64,000 nucleotides of DNA from the sequence record OR896837.1; one strand, 5' to 3'. Source of the DNA: Escherichia phage vB_Eco_mar004NP2. The translations under genes were made by a program, and so were the position numbers. Positions 1 through 25,412 of the stretch are shown in pieces (the stretch's first letter is position 1; every line of letters starts with the position of its first letter). The notes under the pieces are model-generated. The model was not told the DNA's origin and searched no databases. It worked only from the letters and a program-made list of their open reading frames with translations.

Positions 1-201
1 AAGGTAGATAAAGAACGTATCTATTTTATTATGGATTCTGGGGCGTATGGTTCCATTCTCCGTGGGGATATAGCTAAATTATGTTTAGTAAATACTTGGA
101 TGGACGAAGGGAAGATTGATCCTAGGGTGGGATTGTGCTTATCTGGGCCCGCCCTTTATATTGCTAGTGCAGAAATTGAAATGTTTGAGGAACAAGAATG
201 A
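1..201 (+). CDS. hypothetical protein, 3' fragment (gene starts upstream of window)
   Basis: Frame 1 is open from position 1 to TGA at 199-201; the stop overlaps the ATG of the next ORF (ATGA coupling). Confidence 0.4.
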   Translation, partial: KVDKERIYFIMDSGAYGSILRGDIAKLCLVNTWMDEGKIDPRVGLCLSGPALYIASAEIEMFEEQE

Positions 202-401
202 AGAACGTAAAACATCTTAAATATCGCTTAATTTACAACGGACGTATGGAAACAGAAGACCTGGCCCAGTTAGCTATTAATTCTAATGAGGTTACAGTGC
301 GTGCGCTGGCAATTGAAAAGTTGCGTGCTTCTTATGAAAATCGTGTTATGGAACTAGAGGAGAAACTTTATGGCATTCTCGAAGCCGATGCTACCAGATA
401 A
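198..401 (+). CDS. hypothetical protein (67 aa)
   Basis: ORF in track; ATG coupled to upstream stop; no recognisable motif. Confidence 0.4.
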   Translation: MKNVKHLKYRLIYNGRMETEDLAQLAINSNEVTVRALAIEKLRASYENRVMELEEKLYGILEADATR

Positions 402-591
402 GGGTTTAAATGCCGCTTTGGAAAACGCATTAATGCAGCATTGGGAAACTGGCTATAAGGATGGTGTTGAATCCTGCGCTAATATGCTAGAAGTTATTGC
501 TAATACCTTAATGGAGAAAGGCAATAAAGAATTAGCTGAGCTATTAGACAGTATTGGGCAAAACTTCAGAGAACAGGTGGAAAATGCGTAG
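370..591 (+). CDS. hypothetical protein (73 aa)
   Basis: ATG at 370 preceded by GAGGAG (357-362) with 7-nt spacing; overlaps neighbours. Confidence 0.45.
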   Translation: MAFSKPMLPDKGLNAALENALMQHWETGYKDGVESCANMLEVIANTLMEKGNKELAELLDSIGQNFREQVENA

Positions 592-1402
592 ATTAATTAT
601 TATTAGCGGTGCGGGTTTGAGTGTTGAAAGTGGTGTACGAGCTTTTCGTACTGATACTGCTAGTGGTAAAGCACTGTGGGATGATTATGATCTAGAAGAA
701 GTATGTAATATTCATGCCTTTCGTAGTAATTTTTACCATAAAACCCATATGTTTTACAACAAACGTCGTGAAGAGCTAAAAACTGTTGAACCCAATCTTG
801 CACATTTGCGTATTGGTGAATGGTATAAACAATATCCAGGTCAGGTAGTAAACTTGACTACCAACGTTGATGACCTTATTGAGCGTGCTGGCGTTCCACA
901 TAGTGACATTCTGCACATTCACGGATATTTAAAAGAGGTTATTGTAGCTGATAGCTACAATAGTAGCAATAAACGGATTATTGATGTAGGGTACAATTCT
1001 ATTGATCCAGATGATTATAAATGGGTTAAACCTAATGTAATCTTCTTTGGGGAGCATGCTCCAGCGTATGCAGAAATGTACAATATTTTTGATGGTATTA
1101 CCAGTCAAGATATGATCATTGTGGTTGGTTGCTCTAACCAAGTAATTAACTTCTACTGGGAATTATTTCCTGTTCTTAATTTGACTGCTGCGAAACTTAT
1201 GGTTGTTAACTACTATGATAGTGCCCTCGCAGCGGAACCGGGCTATCAAGGTATGACTCGTAGTGAGATGTACCAGCTGGAAGAACGTGGTATCCCTTAC
1301 TGGAGTAAAGGTGCGGTAGATGCTTTCAACGACCCTGATTTTATTGCTCGTGTAGAAGCCCATTTAGAGGGTAGACCTTATGTGTCGAGAAGCAAGAAAT
1401 AA
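584..1402 (+). CDS. Sir2 (sirtuin) family NAD-dependent enzyme, no zinc ribbon
   Basis: Translation contains sirtuin motifs GAGLSVESGVRAFR, TTNVDDL, ILHIHG (catalytic His), VIFFGE and VVGCSNQV; no CxxC pairs. Start placed at ATG 584 (track start 554 is TTG); ATG overlaps the upstream stop. Confidence 0.75.
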   Translation: MRRLIIISGAGLSVESGVRAFRTDTASGKALWDDYDLEEVCNIHAFRSNFYHKTHMFYNKRREELKTVEPNLAHLRIGEWYKQYPGQVVNLTTNVDDLIERAGVPHSDILHIHGYLKEVIVADSYNSSNKRIIDVGYNSIDPDDYKWVKPNVIFFGEHAPAYAEMYNIFDGITSQDMIIVVGCSNQVINFYWELFPVLNLTAAKLMVVNYYDSALAAEPGYQGMTRSEMYQLEERGIPYWSKGAVDAFNDPDFIARVEAHLEGRPYVSRSKK

Positions 1403-1494
1403 TGAATGGGATATTTTTATAGCTTAGTCTGGCACTTGGTGTTATATATATGTTGATACGGTTGAGTATGATACGTTCTTAGAAAGGAACAAAA

Positions 1495-2001
1495 ATGGAA
1501 ATAAGTAATACTCCAATTATTTTTCTAGACATTGATGGGGTGCTCAATTCGAGCATCTCCCATCATCATGCACCTGATAATGAAAAGATTTTCTTTGGAA
1601 GTGACTGGGTTTTCAAACCGCTTCTCAAGGCTTTTCAGGATTTTATTCGTCCTTCTCCGATAATGATTGTTGGAGTATCCTCATGGTTCTCTGTTAGGAA
1701 TGAGATGGAGAACGTTCAGATTATGACCGGATTAGGTCTTATCGATCGTTTTCTTGGTACAACTGATTTTACTGGGGGTGGGCTATCTAGAGGTAATTCT
1801 GTTCTCCGTTTCGTTGAAAAGCATAAGCTCAAACATTGGTGTGTGCTTGATGATGCTGGTGCTACGATGTATCAGTATCCAACGGTTATAGTCAACGGTA
1901 GGACTGGGATAAATCTTCAAGATTTAAAAGCTGTTAGCTATATGCTAGAATTTAGCCCAGATATTGAAATGTGTAAATCCTTACAACAATTTAAGGTGTA
2001 A
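1495..2001 (+). CDS. HAD-superfamily phosphatase-like protein
   Basis: N-terminal FLDIDGVLN matches HAD motif I (DxDG[VT]); later VLDDAG; RBS AAAGGA upstream. Confidence 0.5.
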   Translation: MEISNTPIIFLDIDGVLNSSISHHHAPDNEKIFFGSDWVFKPLLKAFQDFIRPSPIMIVGVSSWFSVRNEMENVQIMTGLGLIDRFLGTTDFTGGGLSRGNSVLRFVEKHKLKHWCVLDDAGATMYQYPTVIVNGRTGINLQDLKAVSYMLEFSPDIEMCKSLQQFKV

Positions 2002-2003
2002 AT

Positions 2004-2432
2004 ATGTTCAATAATGTATTCTCTAAAGAAGCTAACCCAATTTTGGTTAACTTTTGGCGTACTCTCCCAGCTAGCCTGTATAATGAGGCTATTAACTCTT
2101 TGAAAATATGGTGTGAGAATAACGAAATCTCCTTTGCTTTTAAGGATGATATTGATGAGGCCCCCTGTATTGGTTTAATTGTGCAGGTAGAGGATGGTCT
2201 TGAAGAGATTGTGGGCTGGAAAGAGTTAGACGAAATGGGCTTAGTTTTTGCGTTAAACTATAAGCTGTTTATGCCTGCTAAGCATCGCCTAGTTGTTAAC
2301 TATAAAACTAGTGAATCTCCTGGTTTTCAGGTTAATGAACGTTATGGTTGGTCTTACTCACCGGAAGAAGTGAATGAGGGGATTCAGAAACTTCGCCGTT
2401 TCGGGTATATGATCCCAGGTTTAACTGCTTAA
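2004..2432 (+). CDS. hypothetical protein, paralog 1 of tandem pair
   Basis: 142 aa; shares W-x-ELDEMGL-x-F-LN and C-terminal IPGL with the next ORF. Confidence 0.5.
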   Translation: MFNNVFSKEANPILVNFWRTLPASLYNEAINSLKIWCENNEISFAFKDDIDEAPCIGLIVQVEDGLEEIVGWKELDEMGLVFALNYKLFMPAKHRLVVNYKTSESPGFQVNERYGWSYSPEEVNEGIQKLRRFGYMIPGLTA

Positions 2433-2441
2433 GGAGGCAGA

Positions 2442-2834
2442 ATGGAACAAGTATATTGGCGTCAGATTGATCCTAGTTTGGTGAAGCGTGCTGAGAAGCT
2501 GCTACAACGTTGGTTGGGGGTAAAGCAAGCCTCCTTCACTTTTCCAGAGCAGCAAATAGATGATCCCTGCACTGGCGTTTTCCTGTCTGGATATGCCGGG
2601 GAATGGGAGATGGACTGGAATGAATTGTCCTCTATGGGTTTAATTGTTTCCCTAAATTTCTCTTTGTTCCATCCACGTGGTTTTGCCATATGTCGTGTGC
2701 CTGATGACGGTTGTTCGCCCCATCTTTTACAGGTGAAAGATGATATTTGGGAGTACACTCCAGATATTCTCAAAGAAGCTAAAGAACAATTAAACCGTGT
2801 TGGGATTTATGTTCCAGGCCTAAATGATGAATGA
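2442..2834 (+). CDS. hypothetical protein, paralog 2 of tandem pair
   Basis: 130 aa; RBS AGGAGG; same ...ELSSMGLIVSLNF...VPGL pattern as 2004..2432. Confidence 0.5.
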   Translation: MEQVYWRQIDPSLVKRAEKLLQRWLGVKQASFTFPEQQIDDPCTGVFLSGYAGEWEMDWNELSSMGLIVSLNFSLFHPRGFAICRVPDDGCSPHLLQVKDDIWEYTPDILKEAKEQLNRVGIYVPGLNDE

Positions 2835-2857
2835 TTTTTACTAGCTGAACTCTGATT

Positions 2858-2885
2858 ACCGAGTCATTTTGGCTCGGTTTTCTCT
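2858..2885 (+). terminator. rho-independent terminator
   Basis: Hairpin CCGAGTC-ATTTT-GGCTCGG followed by TTTTCTCT, just after the 2442..2834 stop. Confidence 0.5.
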
Positions 2886-2925
2886 GTACTCAAAGACACT
2901 GATAGCACCTTTGGGAAAAATTTAC

Positions 2926-2954
2926 TTGCACGGTGCTCAAAATCTTGATATAAT
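2926..2954 (+). promoter_or_regulatory. sigma70-like early promoter
   Basis: TTGCAC (2926-2931), 17-nt spacer, TATAAT (2949-2954). Confidence 0.5.
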
Positions 2955-3453
2955 ATTTATATTGAATTGAGAGACATTAGTAAAAATTGATTTTGCTAAT
3001 TTTTCTTGTTTACAATCCGCGATACGGAACAGTTAGGCTGCCCCATTAAGGGTTGTTTTAACTGTTACGTGTTAGTTTTTAAACAAATAGTTAATAGAAT
3101 ACTTAGCGATCTGCGTCCCGTAGGAACCCTGGTAAGGCCTCGAAGCAACCTAGATAGAGGTGGTTGTGAAGTGAGACGGGAGGAGTGAAAAACTCCGAGA
3201 CGTGATTCTGTAAGTTATATTGCATCTAGTATGAGCTAGTATATGAAGCATTAGGTGAGCAAATCTGGCTTAGCGGCCATCCTCAAGGATTTGTGCGGTA
3301 TAGCAAAGCAGCAGCGCAGCGTGAAAGTGGAAGTTGCCACCCCACTTCAGTATTTGCGATTAATTTGTTGAGAAATTGACAGTAACAGTTGTTCTATTCT
3401 TTCTGAATAGTCCTAAAGAAAACTTATTTCATTTCCAACACAGGAGTATTGTT

Positions 3454-6243
3454 GTGTTTTCAATCCTACAAGGTCATGCAGGATTTCATCGCGATTTAGC
3501 CACAGGCAATTGGCGAGAAGTTAAAGCAGAAGATTATCTTTTTGCTAAAAGATTTTCCTCAAAGCATCCTGAAGGTAAACCAGCTTCAATGCCCTTCAAG
3601 TTTGATGTAATTGACGAAGTTGATCCTCAAACCCTAGTAGAAATGCTTCCTCTTATGAGACGTTTAACGTCTGACCCTCATATCGTTGCGGTACGAGGTC
3701 GATGTCTTGCACCTAAAAATAATGTGCGGCGTAAGAATGGCAACTTTAATGTATCTAACCCAAGTCATATAATTGCAATGGATGTGGATGGTATTGTAGA
3801 TACAGGTGGTTGTAACAAGTTTGATCTTGTTGGCATGGCTCGACATATTATTAGAATGTTAAATAGTATTAGTGAGGATATGTTTCCTCTTGATGCAGGG
3901 TTTATCGCTCATGCATCGTCTTCGGCTGGGCTAAAACCAGGTATCCGAATGCACTTAATACTAGAATCTAATGTTAAAGTAACTCAGGGTCAAATCAAAT
4001 TCTTATTTACATCTATCAACGAAAGTAGTAGACAAAAGTATGGCTTTGATATTGCCGACTTAGCTTATTACTCTTCCGTACAGCTCCATTATTTTGCAGA
4101 TCCGTTATTTACCGATGGTATAGTAGATCCGTTTAAAGAGGAGGGTGCTTCACGTCTGGTATTTGTTAAGGGTTCTAAAGTAAATTTACCCAATAATCTG
4201 GTTGACTATGAAACAACTAGAGGTGAGTTTAAAGAAGAGTTCTACTCTTTACTAGACCAAATTAAGGGTAAAAAAGCTGCCTCTGATAAAGTAGAAGAAA
4301 CCATCAGCGAACTAGAAGAAGCTGAGGATGGAGTGTATCTACGTATTATTCCTAAACTCTATCACAGGGCTTTAGAGGATGGTGTTGATTTTGCATGGCT
4401 AGAAAAAGAAATCCGTCCAGCCTTATCAGAATATATTGCAACTAAAGATAATAGTCGTAATATTCAAGACTACTTTAATAATGGTCGTAAACAGGCTCTA
4501 AAAGCATTTGTTAATAATTCTAAACGTTATATACCGGATGTTTTAAAAGGTATTCCACTCAAAAAGCTAGAAACTAACTCTTTAGAGACTGATAACTTCT
4601 TGAAATTAAATACTGTGCCACCAGAAGGTTATATGACTTTTGTAAAAGCGAGTCTAGGTACAGGTAAAACTACAGCGGTTGTGCGTTGGTTAGATTCAGG
4701 AGTTATTAAAGGTAATTTCTTAGCAATTACCAATACTCGAGCACTGGTATCTTCCAATGCTAAGAAATTTAGTGCAGGACAATATGATAAGTCTGTAGAT
4801 ATGCTTAATTTTAAGCGTGGTGCTATTGACCGTATGTCCACAACTATTCACTCTTTGCATAAGTTCAAGAGTTTTATTGGTCAAATTGATGCAATCTTTA
4901 TCGATGAATGTGATGCAGTAATGAACGACCTATTATTCGCCCCGGTTGTTAAACAACGTCGTGAATGTATTCAGGTTCTTCGGGATATTCTTGCAACTGC
5001 AAAAATCATTATATTATCAGATGGTGATATTAGTGCAGAAACAATTGAAGCATATGGTTCTTTGATCGAGTTTGATAAACCGGTTGCATTTTATAATCAT
5101 CACCGTAAAATGCTGTCAAAAGCTCATGCTTATGAGTTTCCTGATGAATCCAGTATTTGGGTTGCACTTCAGACTTCTCTAGAGATGGGTGAGAAATCTA
5201 TTCTGGTATCTGATTGTGGCCCTGATGAGCTGAATGAGAAGGGTATGGCATTACGTCGTAATACGGGTGCGTTAGTTAAGGAAATCCACTCAAATTCTAC
5301 GTCTGATGTGGATATTAGACGTATTCTGGATTACACAACTAATGAGCTGATTGATCAACAAATTGATTGCTTATTATGTAGTCCATCCGTAACGAGTGGA
5401 GTTGACTTCAACTATTTTGATAACGTATTCGTTATTACTAGAACCAGTAACCAAGCGCCAAACATGCGTTTTCAAGCAATCAGGCGCGACCGTGGTGCTC
5501 AGAATATCTATTATTTTATTGATAAATCTACGAGTGGATTCTCTGCAGGTTCTGAACAATATAATATTGATGAGGGCTGGCTGGAGTTAGCACAGCAATT
5601 ATATGCACGTCGTAGAGAGCTGGAATCTAGAAATTATACTAGTACTTTACGTTATTACTTGCTTGATCAGGGTGCAACTATTGATATTTTCAGCGAAAGC
5701 TGGGGAACTATTGAAGGTGCAGGGAAAGAATATATGGAAGAGCGAATCAAAGCTATTCTACATTCAACTCCTGATTATTGTGCTCCACGTCATGCGGATG
5801 CGTATGAAGCTAAACTACTTCTTGTTCGCTATTATCATCTTGAGTCTATTAAAGATGTAACAGTTGAGCATGTTGAACAATATATCAAGGATAAACCTAA
5901 TGATCGAGCGGCATTCTTCCATAAAATGCACGAGATGTTTTGGGAAGATATTAAGAAGTGTTCAAACGTCACTATCAAACCATTCATAGAAGCTCTGAAA
6001 GGTAAGAAGAAGGACTTCTTCCTTAAAACAGGTCAGAGTGCTAACCCAAAATATGCTAGAATGTATCTTGGTATGATGGGTATTGGTAAGGATATGAACA
6101 CTGAAAATATTGTAGACTGGTACAGAACCTATTGTAAAATCGAGTGTATGCCAATTCCTTATAAGTTTATGACTGATGAGGAGAAACATATGCATGATGA
6201 AGCAATGGCAGAGCTAGGTGCTAGAAATGACAGTGAAGAATAA
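3454..6243 (+). CDS. replication helicase, UL9/origin-binding-protein-like SF2 helicase with a possible primase-like N-terminal domain
   Basis: Walker A ASLGTGKTT and Walker B IFIDECDAV in the translation; N-terminal AMDVDG acidic motif. Start placed at GTG 3454 with AGGAG 7 nt upstream (track start 3376 is TTG). Confidence 0.6.
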   Translation: MFSILQGHAGFHRDLATGNWREVKAEDYLFAKRFSSKHPEGKPASMPFKFDVIDEVDPQTLVEMLPLMRRLTSDPHIVAVRGRCLAPKNNVRRKNGNFNVSNPSHIIAMDVDGIVDTGGCNKFDLVGMARHIIRMLNSISEDMFPLDAGFIAHASSSAGLKPGIRMHLILESNVKVTQGQIKFLFTSINESSRQKYGFDIADLAYYSSVQLHYFADPLFTDGIVDPFKEEGASRLVFVKGSKVNLPNNLVDYETTRGEFKEEFYSLLDQIKGKKAASDKVEETISELEEAEDGVYLRIIPKLYHRALEDGVDFAWLEKEIRPALSEYIATKDNSRNIQDYFNNGRKQALKAFVNNSKRYIPDVLKGIPLKKLETNSLETDNFLKLNTVPPEGYMTFVKASLGTGKTTAVVRWLDSGVIKGNFLAITNTRALVSSNAKKFSAGQYDKSVDMLNFKRGAIDRMSTTIHSLHKFKSFIGQIDAIFIDECDAVMNDLLFAPVVKQRRECIQVLRDILATAKIIILSDGDISAETIEAYGSLIEFDKPVAFYNHHRKMLSKAHAYEFPDESSIWVALQTSLEMGEKSILVSDCGPDELNEKGMALRRNTGALVKEIHSNSTSDVDIRRILDYTTNELIDQQIDCLLCSPSVTSGVDFNYFDNVFVITRTSNQAPNMRFQAIRRDRGAQNIYYFIDKSTSGFSAGSEQYNIDEGWLELAQQLYARRRELESRNYTSTLRYYLLDQGATIDIFSESWGTIEGAGKEYMEERIKAILHSTPDYCAPRHADAYEAKLLLVRYYHLESIKDVTVEHVEQYIKDKPNDRAAFFHKMHEMFWEDIKKCSNVTIKPFIEALKGKKKDFFLKTGQSANPKYARMYLGMMGIGKDMNTENIVDWYRTYCKIECMPIPYKFMTDEEKHMHDEAMAELGARNDSEE

Positions 6244-6460
6244 AAAATGGGAAACAAGGAAGTTCCCAGTAAAAGAGCGTAAAGTTCCTGTTTACGATAC
6301 TTCGGAAAAGCTATGTAGGGTGGTTCCTGCTAGATTAGCTGGCATCCCTAACATATCCGAGTGGTTACTTAAACAACGGAAAACAAACGTGTCTCTTCGC
6401 ATCGGCTTTGAATTAGATAAAGTCTATGCTGAACTTGCTTCTTTGCTCAAGGAATCGTAA
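6227..6460 (+). CDS. hypothetical protein (77 aa)
   Basis: ATG 6227 overlapping the end of the helicase gene; basic small protein; weak RBS. Confidence 0.3.
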   Translation: MTVKNKKWETRKFPVKERKVPVYDTSEKLCRVVPARLAGIPNISEWLLKQRKTNVSLRIGFELDKVYAELASLLKES

Positions 6461-6468
6461 AAATTTAT

Positions 6469-6497
6469 TTGCATAGTGCAAAAAATTTCTGTATAAT
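6469..6497 (+). promoter_or_regulatory. sigma70-like early promoter
   Basis: TTGCAT-17 nt-TATAAT, followed by AT-rich CATAAATTTGAGAGAGGAG leader ending in the RBS. Confidence 0.55.
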
Positions 6498-6528
6498 AGA
6501 TTCATAAATTTGAGAGAGGAGTTTAAAT

Positions 6529-7233
6529 ATGGCTGGTTCTCGTAGAAAGAAACATATCCATGAAATCCCGGATGAAGTCTTTAAAAAGGTTATAGAGCAT
6601 CTGGAGAACGGTGGTACTAAGAAAGCAGCATGTGAAATGCTCGGCGTATCATCTAATCCAACTATGGAAAGAATGATTGAAGAATGGCAAGACCGCCAGA
6701 TTCAAGTTGCCGAAATGAAGAAAAAGAAACGTGGCACACTCATTGAAGGCATTGAGTTAGCTAACGTTATTGAGCAGTATTTATCTGGTGATTCTTTTGA
6801 AGAAATTGCCGATCGTAATTACCGCTCTGTAGCAATGGTTAAATCTGTTCTGGAACGATATGGTGCTCTACTTCGTTTGAACGATATTGTAGATCCATTG
6901 AATCCTCCAATTATTCCTGATGATGCTGTAGCAGAAGAATTTGCAGTTGGTGAGCTTGTTTGGGTTCCTGGATACCAGTGTATCGGTGAAATCAAAAAAG
7001 CAATGGATAATCCTGTTGGTTGTTACCGTGTATGGCTTCTATCGGAAGGCAAACAACAGAACGTCCATTATATGAATTACGAGTTGGCCTCTGTTAAGCA
7101 TCTAGAAAAGTTAGGGGTTGACGTAAAATCTCTAGGGTACAAGTGGACTCGTGAAGAAATTATTACGTTGATTAACGAAGCTGTTAAGGCCGCCCTGAAG
7201 CTTGATAAAGAAAAAGGAAAACGCCGTGAGTAA
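6529..7233 (+). CDS. putative DNA-binding (HTH) early protein
   Basis: N-terminal GGTKKAACEMLGVSSNPTMERM resembles a helix-turn-helix; strong RBS GAGAGGAG. Confidence 0.45.
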   Translation: MAGSRRKKHIHEIPDEVFKKVIEHLENGGTKKAACEMLGVSSNPTMERMIEEWQDRQIQVAEMKKKKRGTLIEGIELANVIEQYLSGDSFEEIADRNYRSVAMVKSVLERYGALLRLNDIVDPLNPPIIPDDAVAEEFAVGELVWVPGYQCIGEIKKAMDNPVGCYRVWLLSEGKQQNVHYMNYELASVKHLEKLGVDVKSLGYKWTREEIITLINEAVKAALKLDKEKGKRRE

Positions 7234-7489
7234 GCTAACAGATTTGCTTAAAGATGGAGATGTAAAATATCTCCAGCGGGATAGCTGGGGTAATTGGGAC
7301 GCTCGTACTTATTACTCTACTATTATAAAAGTAGATGTTGATAATAATGATATTGTCGAGTTTACCTGGTGGCTCAATGAAGGTGGGTATACCAAGTTCG
7401 ATATAAAAGACGCAACATGGAAAACCTCCTCCCTAACCCTAGAAGAAGCTCTGGCGGATGATTGGGAGATCGTTGAGCTAGATGTGTAG
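7226..7489 (+). CDS. hypothetical protein
   Basis: GTG 7226 with AAGGA 7 nt upstream, overlapping the previous stop (track start 7202 is TTG). Confidence 0.4.
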   Translation: MSKLTDLLKDGDVKYLQRDSWGNWDARTYYSTIIKVDVDNNDIVEFTWWLNEGGYTKFDIKDATWKTSSLTLEEALADDWEIVELDV

Positions 7490-7510
7490 CAATTACAGAA
7501 AAAATTTCAG

Positions 7511-7539
7511 TTGCTTAATCCTATAATTCTTGATATAAT
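7511..7539 (+). promoter_or_regulatory. sigma70-like early promoter
   Basis: TTGCTT-17 nt-TATAAT. Confidence 0.55.
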
Positions 7540-7596
7540 ATTCTCATAGTTTGAAAGAACTATTCTGTTTAATTATTAATTAAGGAAATATAAAAT

Positions 7597-8007
7597 ATGA
7601 CTACTCCAACTCAGTGGACTGATGAACTGTTCGAAAAAATGTCTTCCGAATACGTTGCTCGTATGGAGCAATTCCCAGAGGATGAACGTCCGGGTGTTAG
7701 CATGGAAATTGTTAGCGAAATTGCCCAGGAAAATGGTGTAACTCCGAACGGTTTTCGTATGAAGCTAACTAAAGCAGGTGTGTATATCAAGAAAGCTGCT
7801 GGCTCTGCTTCTAAATCTAGCGCATCTACTGGAGAAAAAGCTTCTGGTGGTTCTCGTACTTCCAAAGCCCAAGCTCATGCCGATCTTCGTTCAGCATTCT
7901 CTGATGCTGGCTTAGCACCAGATTTTCTGGATGATGCAATTATCGACAAACTGACCGGTAAAGCGGCTGCTCATCTGGCAGAAGCAATCCGAGCTATCAC
8001 TAAGTAA
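7597..8007 (+). CDS. hypothetical abundant early protein with one HeH-like module
   Basis: Codons biased to GCT/CGT/CTG/GAA; contains TPNGFRMKLTKAGVYIKKA, related to the repeats of ORF 10733..11500. Confidence 0.5.
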   Translation: MTTPTQWTDELFEKMSSEYVARMEQFPEDERPGVSMEIVSEIAQENGVTPNGFRMKLTKAGVYIKKAAGSASKSSASTGEKASGGSRTSKAQAHADLRSAFSDAGLAPDFLDDAIIDKLTGKAAAHLAEAIRAITK

Positions 8008-8043
8008 TTTCTAGATAAATCCACCAACAAAAGGAACACAGTT

Positions 8044-8337
8044 ATGACCAAAGCTGAAATTATCGCACAATGTGAAAAATTTGGTGAGTTTTATCTTCAT
8101 TACGAGAAACTTCGTCAGAAAGGAACCACGTACCTTCAGGGTACGATGGAATTTGATCCAGCCCAAGATAAATATCTGGCTGAGCGTATTAAACGTGAAC
8201 GTATTCGTAAAGCGAAAGATGATGAGATCCTTGTCTTCTCTCGTACTAATGATAGCTTCCGTTTTATTCCTGTCGAGAAAGTCCGTCGTGTGACTAGCCT
8301 CCAATCAGAGTTAGATCGTGCTTCTCCAGTAGGCTGA
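8044..8337 (+). CDS. hypothetical protein
   Basis: 97-aa ORF with RBS AAGGA; basic, lysine/arginine-rich. Confidence 0.45.
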   Translation: MTKAEIIAQCEKFGEFYLHYEKLRQKGTTYLQGTMEFDPAQDKYLAERIKRERIRKAKDDEILVFSRTNDSFRFIPVEKVRRVTSLQSELDRASPVG

Positions 8338-8350
8338 TAAGAAACCAATT

Positions 8351-8378
8351 AGCCCCTATATGGGGCTTTTTGTGTATT
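8351..8378 (+). terminator. rho-independent terminator
   Basis: AGCCCC-TATAT-GGGGCT followed by TTTTTGTGTATTT. Confidence 0.6.
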
Positions 8379-8390
8379 TGGGATATGTAA

Positions 8391-8699
8391 ATGAGCGAAC
8401 AGGTAAATCAAAACTATGAAGGACACGTTGATGACCAGTCCATCATACTCTGGGAGAAGGAGGGAGAACAAGTAAGATTAACAGTATCTGAATTTCGTGG
8501 GAATCTATACATGGGTATTCGTTACTGGCTTCTTGATATTAATGATGAATGGTTTCCAACGAAATCTGGCTTCTCTTTTCCTTACACCCTAGAAACAACA
8601 TCGCAGCTTTTCTATGCGTTTACACAGATTCTTAGCGAATCTGAGGTTTTACATGAAGTACAGAAACGAGCTGAAGAACTCAAAGCCAAGAATGCCTAG
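8391..8699 (+). CDS. PC4/p15-like ssDNA-binding protein (putative)
   Basis: Pattern RLTVSEFRGNLYMGIRYW...WFPTKSGFSFP resembles the PC4 coactivator fold signature (K..VS...F.G...IDIREYW...PTKKGISL). Confidence 0.4.
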   Translation: MSEQVNQNYEGHVDDQSIILWEKEGEQVRLTVSEFRGNLYMGIRYWLLDINDEWFPTKSGFSFPYTLETTSQLFYAFTQILSESEVLHEVQKRAEELKAKNA

Positions 8700-8718
8700 T
8701 TCTTGGCTTTTTCTTTAT
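8684..8718 (+). terminator. rho-independent terminator
   Basis: AGCCAAGAA-TGCCTAG-TTCTTGGCT followed by TTTTCTTTAT; the stop codon lies in the loop. Confidence 0.55.
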
Positions 8719-8726
8719 AAATGTAT

Positions 8727-8755
8727 TTGCTTTCAACTCAGTTTTGTTATATAAT
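8727..8755 (+). promoter_or_regulatory. sigma70-like early promoter
   Basis: TTGCTT-17 nt-TATAAT followed by TATAAATTAATGAGAG leader. Confidence 0.55.
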
Positions 8756-8786
8756 ATTTATATAAATTAATGAGAGATACAAATAA

Positions 8787-9758
8787 ATGACTAATGTAAA
8801 AGACTTTATTAAACGTTGCCAAGAAGCATATTACCAGGGAATGTCTTTAATCTCTGACGAAGAATATGATCGTCTGATTAAAAGATTTCCGTTAGAAGAA
8901 GAGATCGGGCCTAAGGGCGATATTCCACATCTGTATCGTATGTATTCTTTACAGAAAGTTTATTATAATCGTGGAGATAAACCTCCGTTTAACCCATTAG
9001 GTCAGGTAGAAACTGATAAGTTAGATGGTTGTGCGATTTCTCTGTTATATATTAATGGCGAATTTGTTCAAGCATTAACTCGTGGTAATGGCATTCTAGG
9101 GAATGATGTCACAAGCAACGTAAGATTGCTGAACATCCCTAAAAAGATTTCCCAAAAAGTACCTACTCAAATCACTGGTGAAGTTCTAATTACAAAAGAA
9201 GTAGAAAATAAACGTAACTTTGCCTCTGGTGCTATTAACCTCAAGGATAGAGATGATTTCGTACAACGTATCGGGGAAGGTGGTTTAATCTTCGTTGCAT
9301 ATGGTATCCAGTGTTCTGCTGAATCTGTAGGTATTACAGAAGCGTATTTAAAAGATATGCTTTGGCTGGAGAATGAGAACTTCTTAACAGTTGTTAATGT
9401 GCGTTCCTTCTTTAAATGGATTCCGACGGACGGTAAAGTTGTTCGTATCAATGACAATAACAAATTCTTCCGAGAAGGCTGGACTAATAAATTCCCTCGT
9501 GGAGCATTCGCTATTAAAGAGGATGAAGAAGGCGAAATTACAACTCTTACTAAAGTTGAATGGCAGGTAGGGGCTTCTGGTAAAGTAACTCCAGTTGGTT
9601 ATTTTGAACCGGTAATTATTGATGATGCTACAATTGTTAAAGCGACTCTTAATAACGTTGATTATATTAACTCTCTCGATCTAGAGATCGGTTGCCAGAT
9701 TCGAGTGATTCGTGCTGGTGGTGTAATCCCGTGTATAGTAGAGCGAGTATACGATTAA
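8787..9758 (+). CDS. NAD-dependent DNA ligase, N-terminal (adenylation/OB) subunit
   Basis: LigA-type adenylation motif ETDKLDGCAIS (KxDG lysine), RGNG and EGxV motifs; 323 aa; ends before the Zn-finger/HhH/BRCT part. Confidence 0.8.
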   Translation: MTNVKDFIKRCQEAYYQGMSLISDEEYDRLIKRFPLEEEIGPKGDIPHLYRMYSLQKVYYNRGDKPPFNPLGQVETDKLDGCAISLLYINGEFVQALTRGNGILGNDVTSNVRLLNIPKKISQKVPTQITGEVLITKEVENKRNFASGAINLKDRDDFVQRIGEGGLIFVAYGIQCSAESVGITEAYLKDMLWLENENFLTVVNVRSFFKWIPTDGKVVRINDNNKFFREGWTNKFPRGAFAIKEDEEGEITTLTKVEWQVGASGKVTPVGYFEPVIIDDATIVKATLNNVDYINSLDLEIGCQIRVIRAGGVIPCIVERVYD

Positions 9759-24265: not shown

Positions 24266-24708
24266 TTAAAATTAAATTAACTCATCCAGATTGTATGCCT
24301 AAGATTGGTTCCGAAGATGCCGCAGGTATGGATCTGCGAGCATTCTTTGGTACAAACCCTGCTGCAGATTTACGTGCTATTGCGCCAGGCAAATCCCTAA
24401 TGATTGACACCGGTGTCGCGGTAGAAATTCCGCGAGGTTGGTTCGGTTTGGTGGTTCCTCGTAGCTCTTTAGGTAAGCGCTATTTGATGATTGCAAACAC
24501 CGCAGGGGTGATCGACTCAGACTATCGTGGTACTATTAAGATGAACCTCTATAATTACGGTTCTGAAATGCAAACTCTGGAGAATTTCGAGAGACTTTGT
24601 CAGCTAGTGGTATTGCCACATTACTCAACTCATAATTTTGAAATCGTTGATGAGTTAGAAGAGACTGTACGTGGAGAAGGAGGATTTGGAAGTTCAGGAA
24701 GTAAGTAA
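24262..24708 (+). CDS. dut: dUTP diphosphatase
   Basis: dUTPase motifs AGMDL, PRSSLG, GVIDSDYRG and C-terminal RGEGGFGSSG. Confidence 0.9.
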   Translation: MIKIKLTHPDCMPKIGSEDAAGMDLRAFFGTNPAADLRAIAPGKSLMIDTGVAVEIPRGWFGLVVPRSSLGKRYLMIANTAGVIDSDYRGTIKMNLYNYGSEMQTLENFERLCQLVVLPHYSTHNFEIVDELEETVRGEGGFGSSGSK

Positions 24709-24732
24709 TCTACATATAAAATAAATAATAAA

Positions 24733-24770
24733 CCCCAGTGGATTTTGTCCACTGGGATTTTCTTTTATTG
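24733..24770. terminator. bidirectional rho-independent terminator between convergent early and late genes
   Basis: CCCAGTGGA-TTTTGT-CCACTGGG with T-runs on both sides. Confidence 0.7.
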
Positions 24771-25412
24771 TGATACTAATTGTACCTTTAATTGCTCAAG
24801 CTCTTTCTCTAGATCTTCAATCCGTTTAATAAGATCTTGCACAACATGCATAGTGTCAAGAAGCATTGGAGTTGTATCTAATTCCTTTTGCTCCTGCTCT
24901 ATTCCGTCATCATTATAAAATTTTCTAGTTTTTACATAAAGTGGTTCTATAGTCTCTACTTGCTGAGCAATAACCCCACGTCGGACACGAGATTTTTCAT
25001 CGTTATTATATACAAAGGATTGGAATTCTAATCCTTTTAATACCTCGATGGACTTAGTTGCGTCTATAGCCTTAATATCATGCTTTAAGCGAGAATCAGA
25101 TACAGCATTTAATTGCAAAGTATAGGTTGCTGAAGCACCTGGCCACCAAGAATAAAAATAAATACTATTATTATTCGGCTGAATTTTTAAACGCACACCA
25201 AATTTATTATCATCATCTCCCGCTACCTGCCAACAAGAATCTGCAAATGAGCCTAAGTCATTATGAATTAATCCAAAATGTGCAGATGTCTTATACCCTG
25301 CGGAAGAAGACTGGGAACCGCTCAATATACTATTAAAGTTAAATGTACTACCTATATTGACCTCGTTCTGAGAAAGAGTACCTTGTACCCAGCCAGTCTG
25401 AGACCACGCCAT
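24765..25412 (-). CDS. tail fibre distal segment with C-terminal intramolecular chaperone (S74-like) domain
   Basis: ...NAVSDSRLKHDIKAID... matches the autoproteolytic site and chaperone signature of phage fibres; the frame stays open 5' of the ATG up to 25463. Confidence 0.55.
   Translation of the reverse strand: MAWSQTGWVQGTLSQNEVNIGSTFNFNSILSGSQSSSAGYKTSAHFGLIHNDLGSFADSCWQVAGDDDNKFGVRLKIQPNNNSIYFYSWWPGASATYTLQLNAVSDSRLKHDIKAIDATKSIEVLKGLEFQSFVYNNDEKSRVRRGVIAQQVETIEPLYVKTRKFYNDDGIEQEQKELDTTPMLLDTMHVVQDLIKRIEDLEKELEQLKVQLVSQ

Follow-up and report, generated by a model that had tools for sequence, protein, structure and literature searches.

Sirtuins are protein deacylases and, in bacterial immunity, destroyers of NAD+, and the presence of a sirtuin-like gene in a virulent phage raises the question of what NAD+ is spent on there. 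The gene lies near the start of a 64,000-nucleotide stretch (the window) of Escherichia phage vB_Eco_mar004NP2 (OR896837.1), a virulent Tequintavirus (T5-like phage). The locus itself is not new. Its annotation dates back to the sequencing of the T5 genome, a description of its neighbourhood appeared in 2022, and deposited genomes with 99.6% identity to the window already label the ORF at 584–1402 as Sir2. The type example is phage SP15, for which a neighbourhood of a sirtuin with a Swiss-army-knife (SAK) HAD protein has been described, the phage sirtuin being predicted to remove RNA 2'-phosphates in the manner of KptA/Tpt1 (Iyer, Burroughs, Anantharaman & Aravind 2022, Viruses 14:1977, section 3.7.3; PMC9503650). 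We found no biochemical or genetic assay of the Sir2/HAD locus in the literature searched. Our analysis indicates that the locus probably spends NAD+ either on RNA-end repair or on protein deacylation, and we set out below what bears on this choice.

The Sir2 ORF (584..1402; all genes and the terminator described here are on the + strand) encodes a predicted NAD+-dependent enzyme of 272 residues, orthologous to T5p100 and to SP15 E0157_102. It matches PF02146 (SIR2) with E 2.7e-25 and 89.8 bits, relative to a cut-off of 24, over profile positions 1–178 of 180, and PHROG 2162 with E 4e-121; no other Pfam family matches it at E <= 0.1. A sequence-only reading of this DNA had credited the ORF with the full sirtuin motif set and with an absence of zinc-ribbon cysteines, and had expected a profile search to return SIR2 without a zinc module, and all of this holds. 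Every quoted motif is present, at residues 9–22 (GAGLSVESGVRAFR), 92–98 (TTNVDDL), 111–114 (HIHG), 152–157 (VIFFGE), and 180–187 (VVGCSNQV), and the only cysteines are C41 and C183, both of which lie outside the region between HG and FGE where CobB carries its zinc ribbon; the four-cysteine ribbon of sirtuins is absent. The loss is clade-wide, in that none of the 83 homologs (from 120) in which the HG–FGE region could be located by pattern has more than two cysteines there, and 56 have none. The ORF is a true Sir2-family gene and not a replication gene, as had been supposed, and its catalytic His and Asn positions are not substituted: His113 and N94/D96 are kept, and G9-A10-G11-L-S13, N94, D96, and H113-G114 align with CobB. 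G9, A10, G11, S13, N94, D96, H113, and G114 are invariant in an alignment of 45 clade members, as are Y58, R61, R62, T93, V95, F154, F155, and E157. The segment FYNKRR aligns with FYNARR of CobB (Y92/R95), such that the class III Tyr-x-x-Arg corresponds to the invariant Y58/R61. The phage Sir2 thus has in common with CobB and SIRT5 a Rossmann core with a small domain and the GAGxS, N/D, HG, FGE, and Y-x-x-R elements, but it differs from them in lacking the zinc-binding cysteines, in having TTNVD in place of TQNID (the Gln is replaced by Thr throughout the clade), in an invariant Cys41 at the position of CobB A76, in a C-terminal extension of ~57 residues, in being confined to phages, and in scoring below the NCBIfam CobB cut-offs (100.7 versus 243 bits for NF001753, and 90.1 versus 320 bits for NF040867).

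The closest solved relative is CobB (1s5p, E 1.3e-17), and an AF2 model (pLDDT 90) finds CobB (target-normalised TM 0.85), Sir2Af1, and SIRT5 as its top Foldseek matches, which gives the placement that the sequence-only reading had looked to structure prediction for. The model retains a three-stranded sheet at the zinc-ribbon site. The clade is restricted to phages: it has at least 1000 phage records, and a set of 185,579 species genomes yields only a single, phage-like MAG contig. The window Sir2 is a zinc-less, phage-restricted offshoot of the class III (CobB/SIRT5-like) sirtuins with its catalytic residues intact. The earlier reading misleads where it likens the zinc-less state to that of NAD-consuming Sir2 domains. 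The defence Sir2 NADases (ThsA, DSR1/2, Sir2-HerA, and SPARSA) appear to share with the window protein a zinc-ribbon-free Sir2 fold and NAD+ consumption, but the window Sir2 is phage-encoded and has no sensor partner, its nearest relatives are deacylases, it keeps Y58/R61, no PADLOC family, defence-Sir2 models included, matches it at E <= 0.01, and the top 50 fold matches of the model include no defence Sir2. No sensor or partner of the defence systems (SLOG, HerA, pAgo/APAZ, or a large C-terminal sensor) is fused to the protein or encoded beside it; the protein stands alone, with HAD, DUF7415 genes, and small ORFs as its neighbours. A defence-type, NAD-depleting Sir2 was rejected on the basis that there is no PADLOC match and that the best sequences and folds are CobB and SIRT5. 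Homology to the ART-fold KptA was also rejected, as Pfam, NCBIfam, and PDB searches give sirtuins only.

The Sir2 gene is followed by one for a predicted HAD-superfamily phosphatase of 168 residues (1495..2001), orthologous to T5p103, that had already been recognised as HAD-like and that matches HAD_SAK_2 (PF18143; E 6.7e-20, and 72.3 bits versus a cut-off of 27.5, over profile positions 1–138 of 139). Across 14 homologs, with identities down to 32%, its motifs I–IV (D12-I-D14, S62/S63, R99, and D119-D120) do not vary, and the protein, a capless-looking phosphatase of this family, is predicted to be catalytically competent. The window contains both the phage-clade sirtuin and the SAK-like HAD by which the SP15-type neighbourhood (type 3 of the phage RNA-repair sirtuin neighbourhoods) is recognized. 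HAD is the conserved partner of Sir2: the two genes are adjacent in all 27 Tequintavirus/Epseptimavirus loci examined, the adjacency is kept in two loci (L071 and L072) where the gene order is reversed and HAD identity is only 39–42%, and in phage DT57C Sir2 and HAD have been destroyed together, with flanking genes 91% intact. The intergenic gap between them (1403..1494) is 92 nt long in the window and is a hot spot of small-ORF gain and loss among relatives, with HAD starting 911 nt after the Sir2 start in the window and 805 to 1311 nt after it in relatives; T5 and SP15 have one or two additional small ORFs there. The gap yielded no promoter-like site. The tight operon coupling that had been proposed is thus seen generally, but not at this gap with its variable length.

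Comparison with relatives shows that the locus is the tail end of an early transcription run, led by nrdD, in a T5-like phage. Its functional core is the two-enzyme pair of sirtuin and HAD phosphatase, with which the small upstream ORFs and both DUF7415 genes are co-transcribed as passengers. Although the ORF coordinates of the sequence-only reading all stand, its start of the unit at 198 does not; the run starts earlier, because in every relative it is led by nrdD, upstream of the window, and because the window cuts through another small gene of the same run, of which the ORF at 1..201 (PHROG 20147, E 3e-24) is the 3' part. The true start of this ORF is ~12 nt before the window; it follows nrdD in relatives, and its counterpart is an annotated 213-nt CDS in NC_048205 and PP094244. 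Its stop is overlapped by the start of a T5p099-like ORF of 67 residues (198..401; PHROG 5236, E 4e-46), which is found in 27 of the 27 Tequintavirus/Epseptimavirus loci examined. The next ORF (370..591, 73 residues; PHROG 5827, E 1e-29), the stop of which overlaps the Sir2 start by 8 nt, is variable: clear orthologs with at least 64% identity are present in 12 of 23 Tequintavirus loci, and T5 has at this position a non-coding stretch with a predicted promoter instead. SP15 and the window have the same locus, with Sir2 97% and HAD 95.8% identical and a common order of nrdD, small ORFs, Sir2, HAD, a 429-nt gene, a 393-nt gene, and a helicase, but SP15 alone has one small ORF between Sir2 and HAD and, past the terminator region, an HNH endonuclease, and the window alone has the ORF at 370–591, in place of two small upstream ORFs of SP15.

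The two genes that follow HAD are tandem paralogs, as had been noted, and both match PF24187: DUF7415 protein a (2004..2432, 142 residues, the T5p104 ortholog; E 2.6e-35; PHROG 2502) and protein b (2442..2834, 130 residues, the T5p105 ortholog; E 2.3e-31) score 120.8 and 108.2 bits (cut-off 27), the profile matching two stretches of each protein, and share 31% identity (E 2e-19). They are not, however, a specific part of the module that they were taken to belong to. The pair is intact in DT57C despite the loss of Sir2 and HAD, divergent T5-like contigs have the HAD–Sir2 pair without DUF7415 genes, and T4-like and P2-like phages encode the C-terminal domain of protein b, of ~65 residues, by itself as a small ORF. 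The run ends, where it had been predicted to, at an intrinsic terminator (2858..2885), with a 9-bp stem (2858–2878) that has five G-C pairs and a 3-nt loop and is followed by a T-run; it folds with −16.8 kcal/mol (z = −3.5), a stability reached by none of 200 shuffled sequences.

The genomic contexts of more distant homologs suggest two kinds of function. In 12 Vequintavirinae-like loci, orthologs of Sir2 that are 47–62% identical are encoded in an operon with a metallophosphoesterase, an Rnl1-type RNA ligase, and a P-loop kinase, and cREC is present in eight of the 12; in the rV5/PVP-SE1 type of this operon the Sir2 is 57–61% identical and likewise zinc-less. The T5-like locus is unlike this operon in that HAD is present and no ligase, kinase, cREC, or phosphoesterase genes adjoin it. 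In a 99.4%-identical T5-like relative, cREC (E 1.5e-14) lies beside ~24 tRNA genes, ~13 kb from the Sir2 locus. The ligase/cREC/kinase/Sir2 operon and this placement of cREC speak for RNA repair, and the ~10 of 59 loci that have no RNA-repair neighbour speak against it. Other arrangements place the two genes close to NAD+ salvage. In Acinetobacter phage ABPH49 and in Serratia phage ChuuTotoro a HAD homolog heads a Prs–Nampt operon, lying directly upstream of Prs and Nampt; two distant Sir2 relatives, which sit between Nampt/NADAR and nrdD, are in the order Nampt–Sir2, one of them with NADAR upstream; and Prs and Nampt are no more than 7 kb from Sir2 in the Vequintavirinae and in locus L065. 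The HAD–Prs–Nampt and Nampt/NADAR–Sir2 contexts point to NAD+/ADP-ribose metabolism rather than to RNA.

We lean, although tentatively, towards the reading that the Sir2–HAD pair heals damaged RNA ends, chiefly those of nuclease-cut tRNA, which we infer in essentially the form proposed by Iyer et al. 2022 (PMC9503650). The damage would consist of tRNA cut by host anticodon or acceptor-stem nucleases, with metal-independent RNases leaving 2',3'-cyclic phosphates, and a cyclic-phosphate-opening enzyme, for which the candidate is the phage cREC beside the tRNA cluster, outside the window, would convert these to 2'- or 3'-monophosphates. The sirtuin would then act as KptA/Tpt1 does: a phosphate oxygen would attack C1'' of NAD+ with departure of nicotinamide, and the His-activated ribose 2''-OH would attack the phosphorus, yielding ADP-ribose-1'',2''-cyclic phosphate and a clean 2'-OH. 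The Tyr/Arg pair in SIRT5 and CobB binds the carboxylate of succinyl-lysine, and Tyr58/Arg61 of the phage Sir2 could similarly hold the anionic phosphate. HAD would strip either the remaining RNA 3'-phosphate or the phosphate of the ADP-ribose by-product, and in the second case the by-product could re-enter NAD+ salvage. The proposed likeness to KptA/Tpt1 thus includes an NAD+-dependent step, nicotinamide release, and attack of the ADP-ribose 2''-OH on the adduct, as well as genomic association with RNA ligases and end-healing enzymes, but the folds differ (ART versus Rossmann sirtuin) without homology, and Sir2 would at most be a functional analogue.

This reading gains from the HAD_SAK_2 family having been defined from RNA-repair proteins, and the neighbourhood and mechanism have been published for SP15. 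Other points count against it. Rnl1-type RNA ligase appears to be missing from enterobacterial T5-like phages (a search gave only 14 Salmonella records among 814 matches), and no polynucleotide kinase was found among the annotated products in the examined parts of a close relative, so that repair would either depend on enzymes of the host or go no further than the healing of 3' ends. E. coli already has KptA. All of the residues for lysine deacylation are also conserved in Sir2, and the sequence therefore cannot separate the two chemistries.

It is a real possibility, if less than a probable one, that Sir2 is instead a phage copy of CobB, a protein lysine deacylase (deacetylase or desuccinylase) that remodels host or phage protein acylation early in infection, with HAD either unrelated or a metabolite-level helper. 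Whether by sequence, profile, or fold, its best matches are deacylases (CobB, Sir2Af1/2, SIRT5, SIRT3, and SIRT2), and the sheet that the model retains at the zinc-ribbon site, together with the invariance of His113, N94/D96, the FFGE substrate-staple loop, and the acyl-carboxylate readers Y58/R61, is consistent with such an activity, as are the Sir2 loci that have no RNA-repair neighbours. A deacetylase role, namely the activation of acetyl-CoA synthetase, has been proposed in silico for Sir2/CobB of the schizoT4-like Vibrio phages phiSt2 and KVP40 in a study that noted their loss of zinc and listed T5 among the phages with this protein (Skliros et al. 2016; PMC5107563), although these zinc-less phage sirtuins are only ~35–40% identical to the window Sir2 and are in another genome context. 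However, the scores far under the CobB cut-offs argue against simple equivalence with CobB, as do the two clade-invariant departures, Thr for Gln in TQNID and Cys41 at the acyl-pocket position A76. Deacylation also leaves unexplained both the operon with RNA ligase, cREC, and kinase and the conserved pairing with a phosphatase, and CobB is already supplied by the host.

A module acting on NAD+ or ADP-ribose metabolites is improbable. The sirtuin would be an NAD+ glycohydrolase, or an ADP-ribosyl or phosphoribosyl transferase acting on small molecules, and HAD would dephosphorylate a nucleotide intermediate, the pair reshaping NAD+-derived pools or destroying NAD+-derived immune signals. This corresponds to the anti-defence idea of the sequence-only reading, which is plausible, but the specific form of it that has been published is RNA-end repair and not NAD depletion (PMC9503650). 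The missing zinc module, as in defence NADases, fits, as do the Prs, Nampt, and NADAR contexts of both genes and the NARP3-based rebuilding of NAD+ in T5-like phages (PMC13464706). Nampt beside a sirtuin is, however, equally expected for any reaction that releases nicotinamide, wholesale destruction of NAD+ would harm a lineage that invests in its re-synthesis, defence Sir2s are absent from the PADLOC matches and from the top 50 fold matches, and a protein that has kept Y58/R61 and the FGE loop is more likely to bind a macromolecule or an acyl group as its substrate. Very unlikely is a mono-ADP-ribosyltransferase for protein or nucleic acid, or an enzyme acting on NAD-capped RNA, that modifies a host target without repair, since, although some sirtuins (the SirTM class) have ADP-ribosyltransferase activity (PMC9503650, section 3.3.2) and the gene is expressed early, in the host-takeover region, there is no adjacent Macro-domain partner as in SirTM systems, the clade is nearest to class III deacylases, and specific support is absent.

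A further version of the RNA-repair reading, which we consider doubtful, is that the phage protein is the first RNA-acting sirtuin, removing 2'-phosphates through Tpt1-like ADP-ribosyl transfer with the phosphate held by the class III Tyr/Arg pair, and that with HAD and the distant cREC it would accomplish ligase-independent healing of tRNA ends, with its by-products feeding NAD+ salvage. We know of no sirtuin with KptA/Tpt1-type activity. If this is correct, the HAD–Prs–Nampt and NADAR–Nampt–Sir2 arrangements, which are newly seen here, would tie RNA repair to NAD+ recycling, with nicotinamide and ADP-ribose-phosphate by-products supplying the NAD+ salvage of the phage. At least 1000 sequenced phages carry a member of the Sir2 clade, and some of them are candidates for phage therapy against E. 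coli, Salmonella, and Klebsiella. RNA-end repair, if true, would give the sirtuin family a new chemistry and phages a new way to counter immune systems that cut tRNA; deacylation, if true, would show clearly that a virus rewrites the acyl-proteome of its host. Either activity would inform how NAD+ is contested during infection.

Four genes lie near the start of the vB_Eco_mar004NP2 window, all on the plus strand: a Sir2-like protein (584–1402; 272 aa), a HAD phosphatase (1495–2001; 168 aa) and two DUF7415 proteins (2004–2432 and 2442–2834). All of the ORF coordinates proposed in the sequence-only reading are confirmed, as are the HAD assignment of the gene after Sir2 (HAD_SAK_2, PF18143, E 6.7e-20) and the paralogy of the last two genes, which both match DUF7415 (E about 1e-31 to 1e-35) and are 31% identical to each other (E 2e-19). 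The terminator it placed at 2858–2885 is real by the usual criteria, with a 9-bp stem and a T-run (-16.8 kcal/mol, z = -3.5). The operon does not start at 198, as had been proposed, since the first gene of the same-strand run is nrdD, which lies before the window, and the proposed tight coupling of the genes fails between Sir2 and HAD, where there is a 92-nt gap. The first 3.4 kb of the window matches about 180 further T5-like phages (Demerecviridae, Tequintavirus) at 95–99% identity, and T5 itself encodes orthologs of Sir2 (T5p100, annotated "similar to KVP40 Sir2/CobB"), HAD (T5p103) and the DUF7415 paralogs (T5p104 and T5p105). Hundreds of genomes already carry an annotation of this locus, and earlier publications describe both the lack of zinc in the sirtuin and its neighbourhood with HAD. 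Skliros et al. (2016) noted that phage Sir2/CobB proteins (phiSt2 and KVP40) lack the zinc ligand, named T5 as a carrier, and proposed that they deacetylate acetyl-CoA synthetase (PMC5107563). Iyer et al. (2022) proposed that the sirtuin strips RNA 2'-phosphates as KptA does; SP15, the phage whose sirtuin–HAD neighbourhood they published, has a gene order identical to that of the window, with Sir2 97% and HAD 95.8% identical. A literature search for experiments on any phage sirtuin returned in-silico work only, and no biochemical or genetic test was found.

The assignment of the first protein to the Sir2 family is solid and the original observation correct: PF02146 matches across the whole profile (E 2.7e-25), every Sir2 motif previously quoted is present in the 272-aa product, and the only cysteines, C41 and C183, both lie outside the segment that forms the CobB zinc ribbon. 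By sequence, the closest proteins of known structure are E. coli CobB (E 1.3e-17), Sir2Af1/2 and SIRT5, and an AlphaFold model (pLDDT 90, pTM 0.88) gives a fold ranking that agrees with the sequence ranking, with a target-normalised TM-score of 0.85 to CobB. In the CobB alignment the NAD+ loop, N94, D96, the catalytic H113 and the FFGE loop are all in place, such that neither the catalytic His nor the Asn is substituted, and the class III pair is kept, with FYNKRR aligned to the FYNARR of CobB (Y92/R95); all of these features are invariant in 45 clade members. The clade departs from CobB in having Thr in place of the Gln of TQNID, in an invariant Cys41 at the position of the acyl-pocket residue A76 (mapped via A76G mutant chains among the structure matches), in lacking the zinc ligands, although a three-stranded sheet persists there in the model, and in carrying a C-terminal extension. 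The window protein scores far below the cut-offs of the curated CobB models. The lack of zinc had been likened to the arrangement of NAD-consuming Sir2 domains, but a defence-type Sir2 is not borne out: PADLOC matched none of the six proteins scanned to any defence model, for which reason we dropped a defence-type reading, and no defence-type Sir2 is found among the first 50 fold matches. We therefore place the protein in a zinc-less branch of the classical class III sirtuins; it is not a CobB ortholog, nor is it a defence NADase. Its clade is a large one, with at least 1000 phage records, and is restricted to phages. The best 120 database homologs listed are all 50% or more identical, their named sources are mostly phage, and many sit on contigs of about 110–150 kb. 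Cellular membership was considered, and a scan of 185,579 species genomes yielded the clade motifs in only one phage-like MAG contig.

The gene neighbourhoods were surveyed at 59 IMG/VR loci encoding clade members, each searched with a panel of neighbour proteins. All 23 Tequintavirus and all four Epseptimavirus loci have nrdD, one or more small ORFs, Sir2, HAD and both DUF7415 genes, whereas three Klebsiella T5-like phages have nrdD, Sir2 and DUF7415 without HAD. Twelve Vequintavirinae-like loci share a different arrangement of metallophosphoesterase, Rnl1-type RNA ligase, cREC (detected in eight of the 12), P-loop kinase, Sir2 and DNA ligase, with MazG further along, and each of these domains is confirmed by Pfam in two example loci; Prs and Nampt lie 5–7 kb away on the opposite strand in nine of the 12, and the available sequence stops short of that distance in two others. 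About ten other loci, mostly myovirus-like contigs of about 145–153 kb, have no panel neighbours, and a NadR-type AAA_28 kinase is the sole notable neighbour at one of them. Outside the census, two divergent T5-like contigs have the order nrdD, HAD, small ORF(s) and Sir2, with the pair inverted, HAD at 39–42% identity, and no DUF7415. In phage DT57C, deletions wreck both Sir2 and HAD, and both DUF7415 genes are still 91% identical. Because of the census, the inverted contigs and the DT57C deletions, we conclude that Sir2 and HAD work as a functional pair, which is not required under laboratory conditions, and that the DUF7415 genes are not tied to this pair. A PDB sequence search with HAD gave no match at E <= 1. 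A functional link of Sir2 with NrdD was also considered, since these genes are neighbours in three lineages whose gene order differs, but the adjacency may be no more than synteny among genes of nucleotide metabolism.

The DUF7415 proteins each consist of an N-terminal part followed by a C-terminal domain of about 65 aa, and the latter also occurs alone as an ORF of 77–86 aa (3480–3713 in locus L007 and 3492–3752 in locus L008). In Jiaodavirus KP185 the stand-alone form is flanked by nrdD and nrdG, and in RB16 it is next to nudE; tblastn detects the domain in the 34-kb Aeromonas phage phiO18P, and the T5 annotators noted similarity of the paralogs to P2-like phage proteins. A role as a specific Sir2 partner was rejected, given retention of DUF7415 in DT57C without Sir2 and HAD, its absence from the two divergent T5-like contigs (L071 and L072), and occurrence of the domain alone near nrdD/nrdG or nudE in T4-like phages. 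Because the T5-like run too begins with nrdD, DUF7415 may be linked to anaerobic ribonucleotide reduction. We also note that L074 (PP094244), a 99.4% identical relative that carries NrdD, encodes a stand-alone 122-aa glycyl-radical domain (24539–24907; PF01228, E 4e-18), which resembles a GrcA/YfiD-type spare part.

The locus varies in both spacing and alleles. In relatives the Sir2–HAD gap (1403–1494 in the window) ranges from overlap to about 500 nt with one or two extra small ORFs, and the Tequintavirus HAD genes (L011–L033) start 805, 984/992, 1131/1141 or 1311 nt after the Sir2 start, compared with 911 nt in the window; the gap is a hot spot of small-ORF gain and loss. Between Tequintavirus and Epseptimavirus (L049–L052), HAD is 88–89% and DUF7415 63–76% identical, but Sir2 only about 52%, such that mosaicism against the Epseptimavirus loci is strong between 584–1402 and 1495–2001. 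The Tequintavirus Sir2 is closer to that of Vequintavirinae (57–62%), a pattern that points to replacement of the allele through exchange among phage families. Upstream, nrdD is present as both 99% and 60% alleles within Tequintavirus. A promoter scan returned 12 sites against a chance expectation of 10.5, with no site in the Sir2–HAD gap, and is uninformative about internal promoters; an Rfam scan of 1–3600 found no match at E <= 1. About 490 nt of non-coding DNA (2885–3375) separate the terminator from the D2 ('replication origin binding') helicase ORF, and a sigma-70-like promoter is visible by eye at about 2925–2953 (TTGCAC-17-TATAAT), where the T5 annotators also mark one, although the automatic scan did not list it. 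A seemingly G+C-richer part of this stretch folds better than shuffles (z = -2.5) without an Rfam match, and SP15 has an HNH endonuclease inserted in the corresponding stretch.

Relatives of both enzymes lie beside NAD+ genes. HAD_SAK_2 homologs (38–40% identical) are directly upstream of Prs (ribose-phosphate pyrophosphokinase) and Nampt (nicotinamide phosphoribosyltransferase) in a conserved three-gene operon of Acinetobacter phage ABPH49 (L009, 3001–6222) and Serratia phage ChuuTotoro (L070, 6001–9217). This operon implies a probable phosphatase step in phage NAD+ salvage, of which we found no description in the literature consulted. Distant Sir2 relatives (41–43% identical) directly follow Nampt and precede nrdD in L068 and L073; the latter, a T4-like phage contig assigned by binning to a Bacilli MAG, encodes NADAR, an unknown gene, Nampt, Sir2, EndoVII, NrdD and NrdG on one strand (2664–9669). 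We did not find these links to Prs, Nampt and NADAR in Iyer et al. (2022). In addition, the NARP3 pair, for which NAD+ re-synthesis has been shown by experiment, is present in T5-like phages (PMC13464706).

We tentatively favor a model in which Sir2 and HAD heal RNA ends, while judging it somewhat short of an even chance, on the grounds that both enzymes are identified and intact, that they are conserved as a pair, and that the orthologs lie in an RNA-ligase operon; the chemistry is inferred. Cyclic-phosphate ends left by host RNases would be opened, perhaps by the phage cREC beside the tRNA cluster; the sirtuin would strip the 2'-phosphate via ADP-ribosyl transfer from NAD+; and HAD would remove either the 3'-phosphate or the phosphate group carried by the ADP-ribose by-product. 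The cREC is confirmed in L074 (12359–12676; PF20274, E 1.5e-14), some 13 kb to the left of where the window starts and with about 24 clustered tRNA genes roughly 2 kb downstream, and is the same domain as the Sir2 neighbour in Vequintavirinae. Attack of the His-activated ribose hydroxyl on the C1'' adduct would parallel the second step of Tpt1, and the class III pair Y58/R61 could grip a phosphate as it grips a carboxylate in SIRT5. RNA-end healing is weakened in that enterobacterial T5-like phages seem to be without an Rnl1-type ligase, and in that Sir2 retains every deacylase feature. An ordinary protein deacylase is nearly as likely. The NAD+ links fit any nicotinamide-releasing reaction and do not single out an acceptor. 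The NADase or metabolite module preferred in the sequence-only reading is improbable, and an ADP-ribosylating or NAD-cap-acting enzyme is very unlikely.

The value that remains is that the two published in-silico hypotheses, RNA 2'-phosphate removal and deacetylation, are directly testable, and such experiments gain a sharper focus from the HAD–Prs–Nampt and Nampt–Sir2 links and from the loss of both genes in DT57C.
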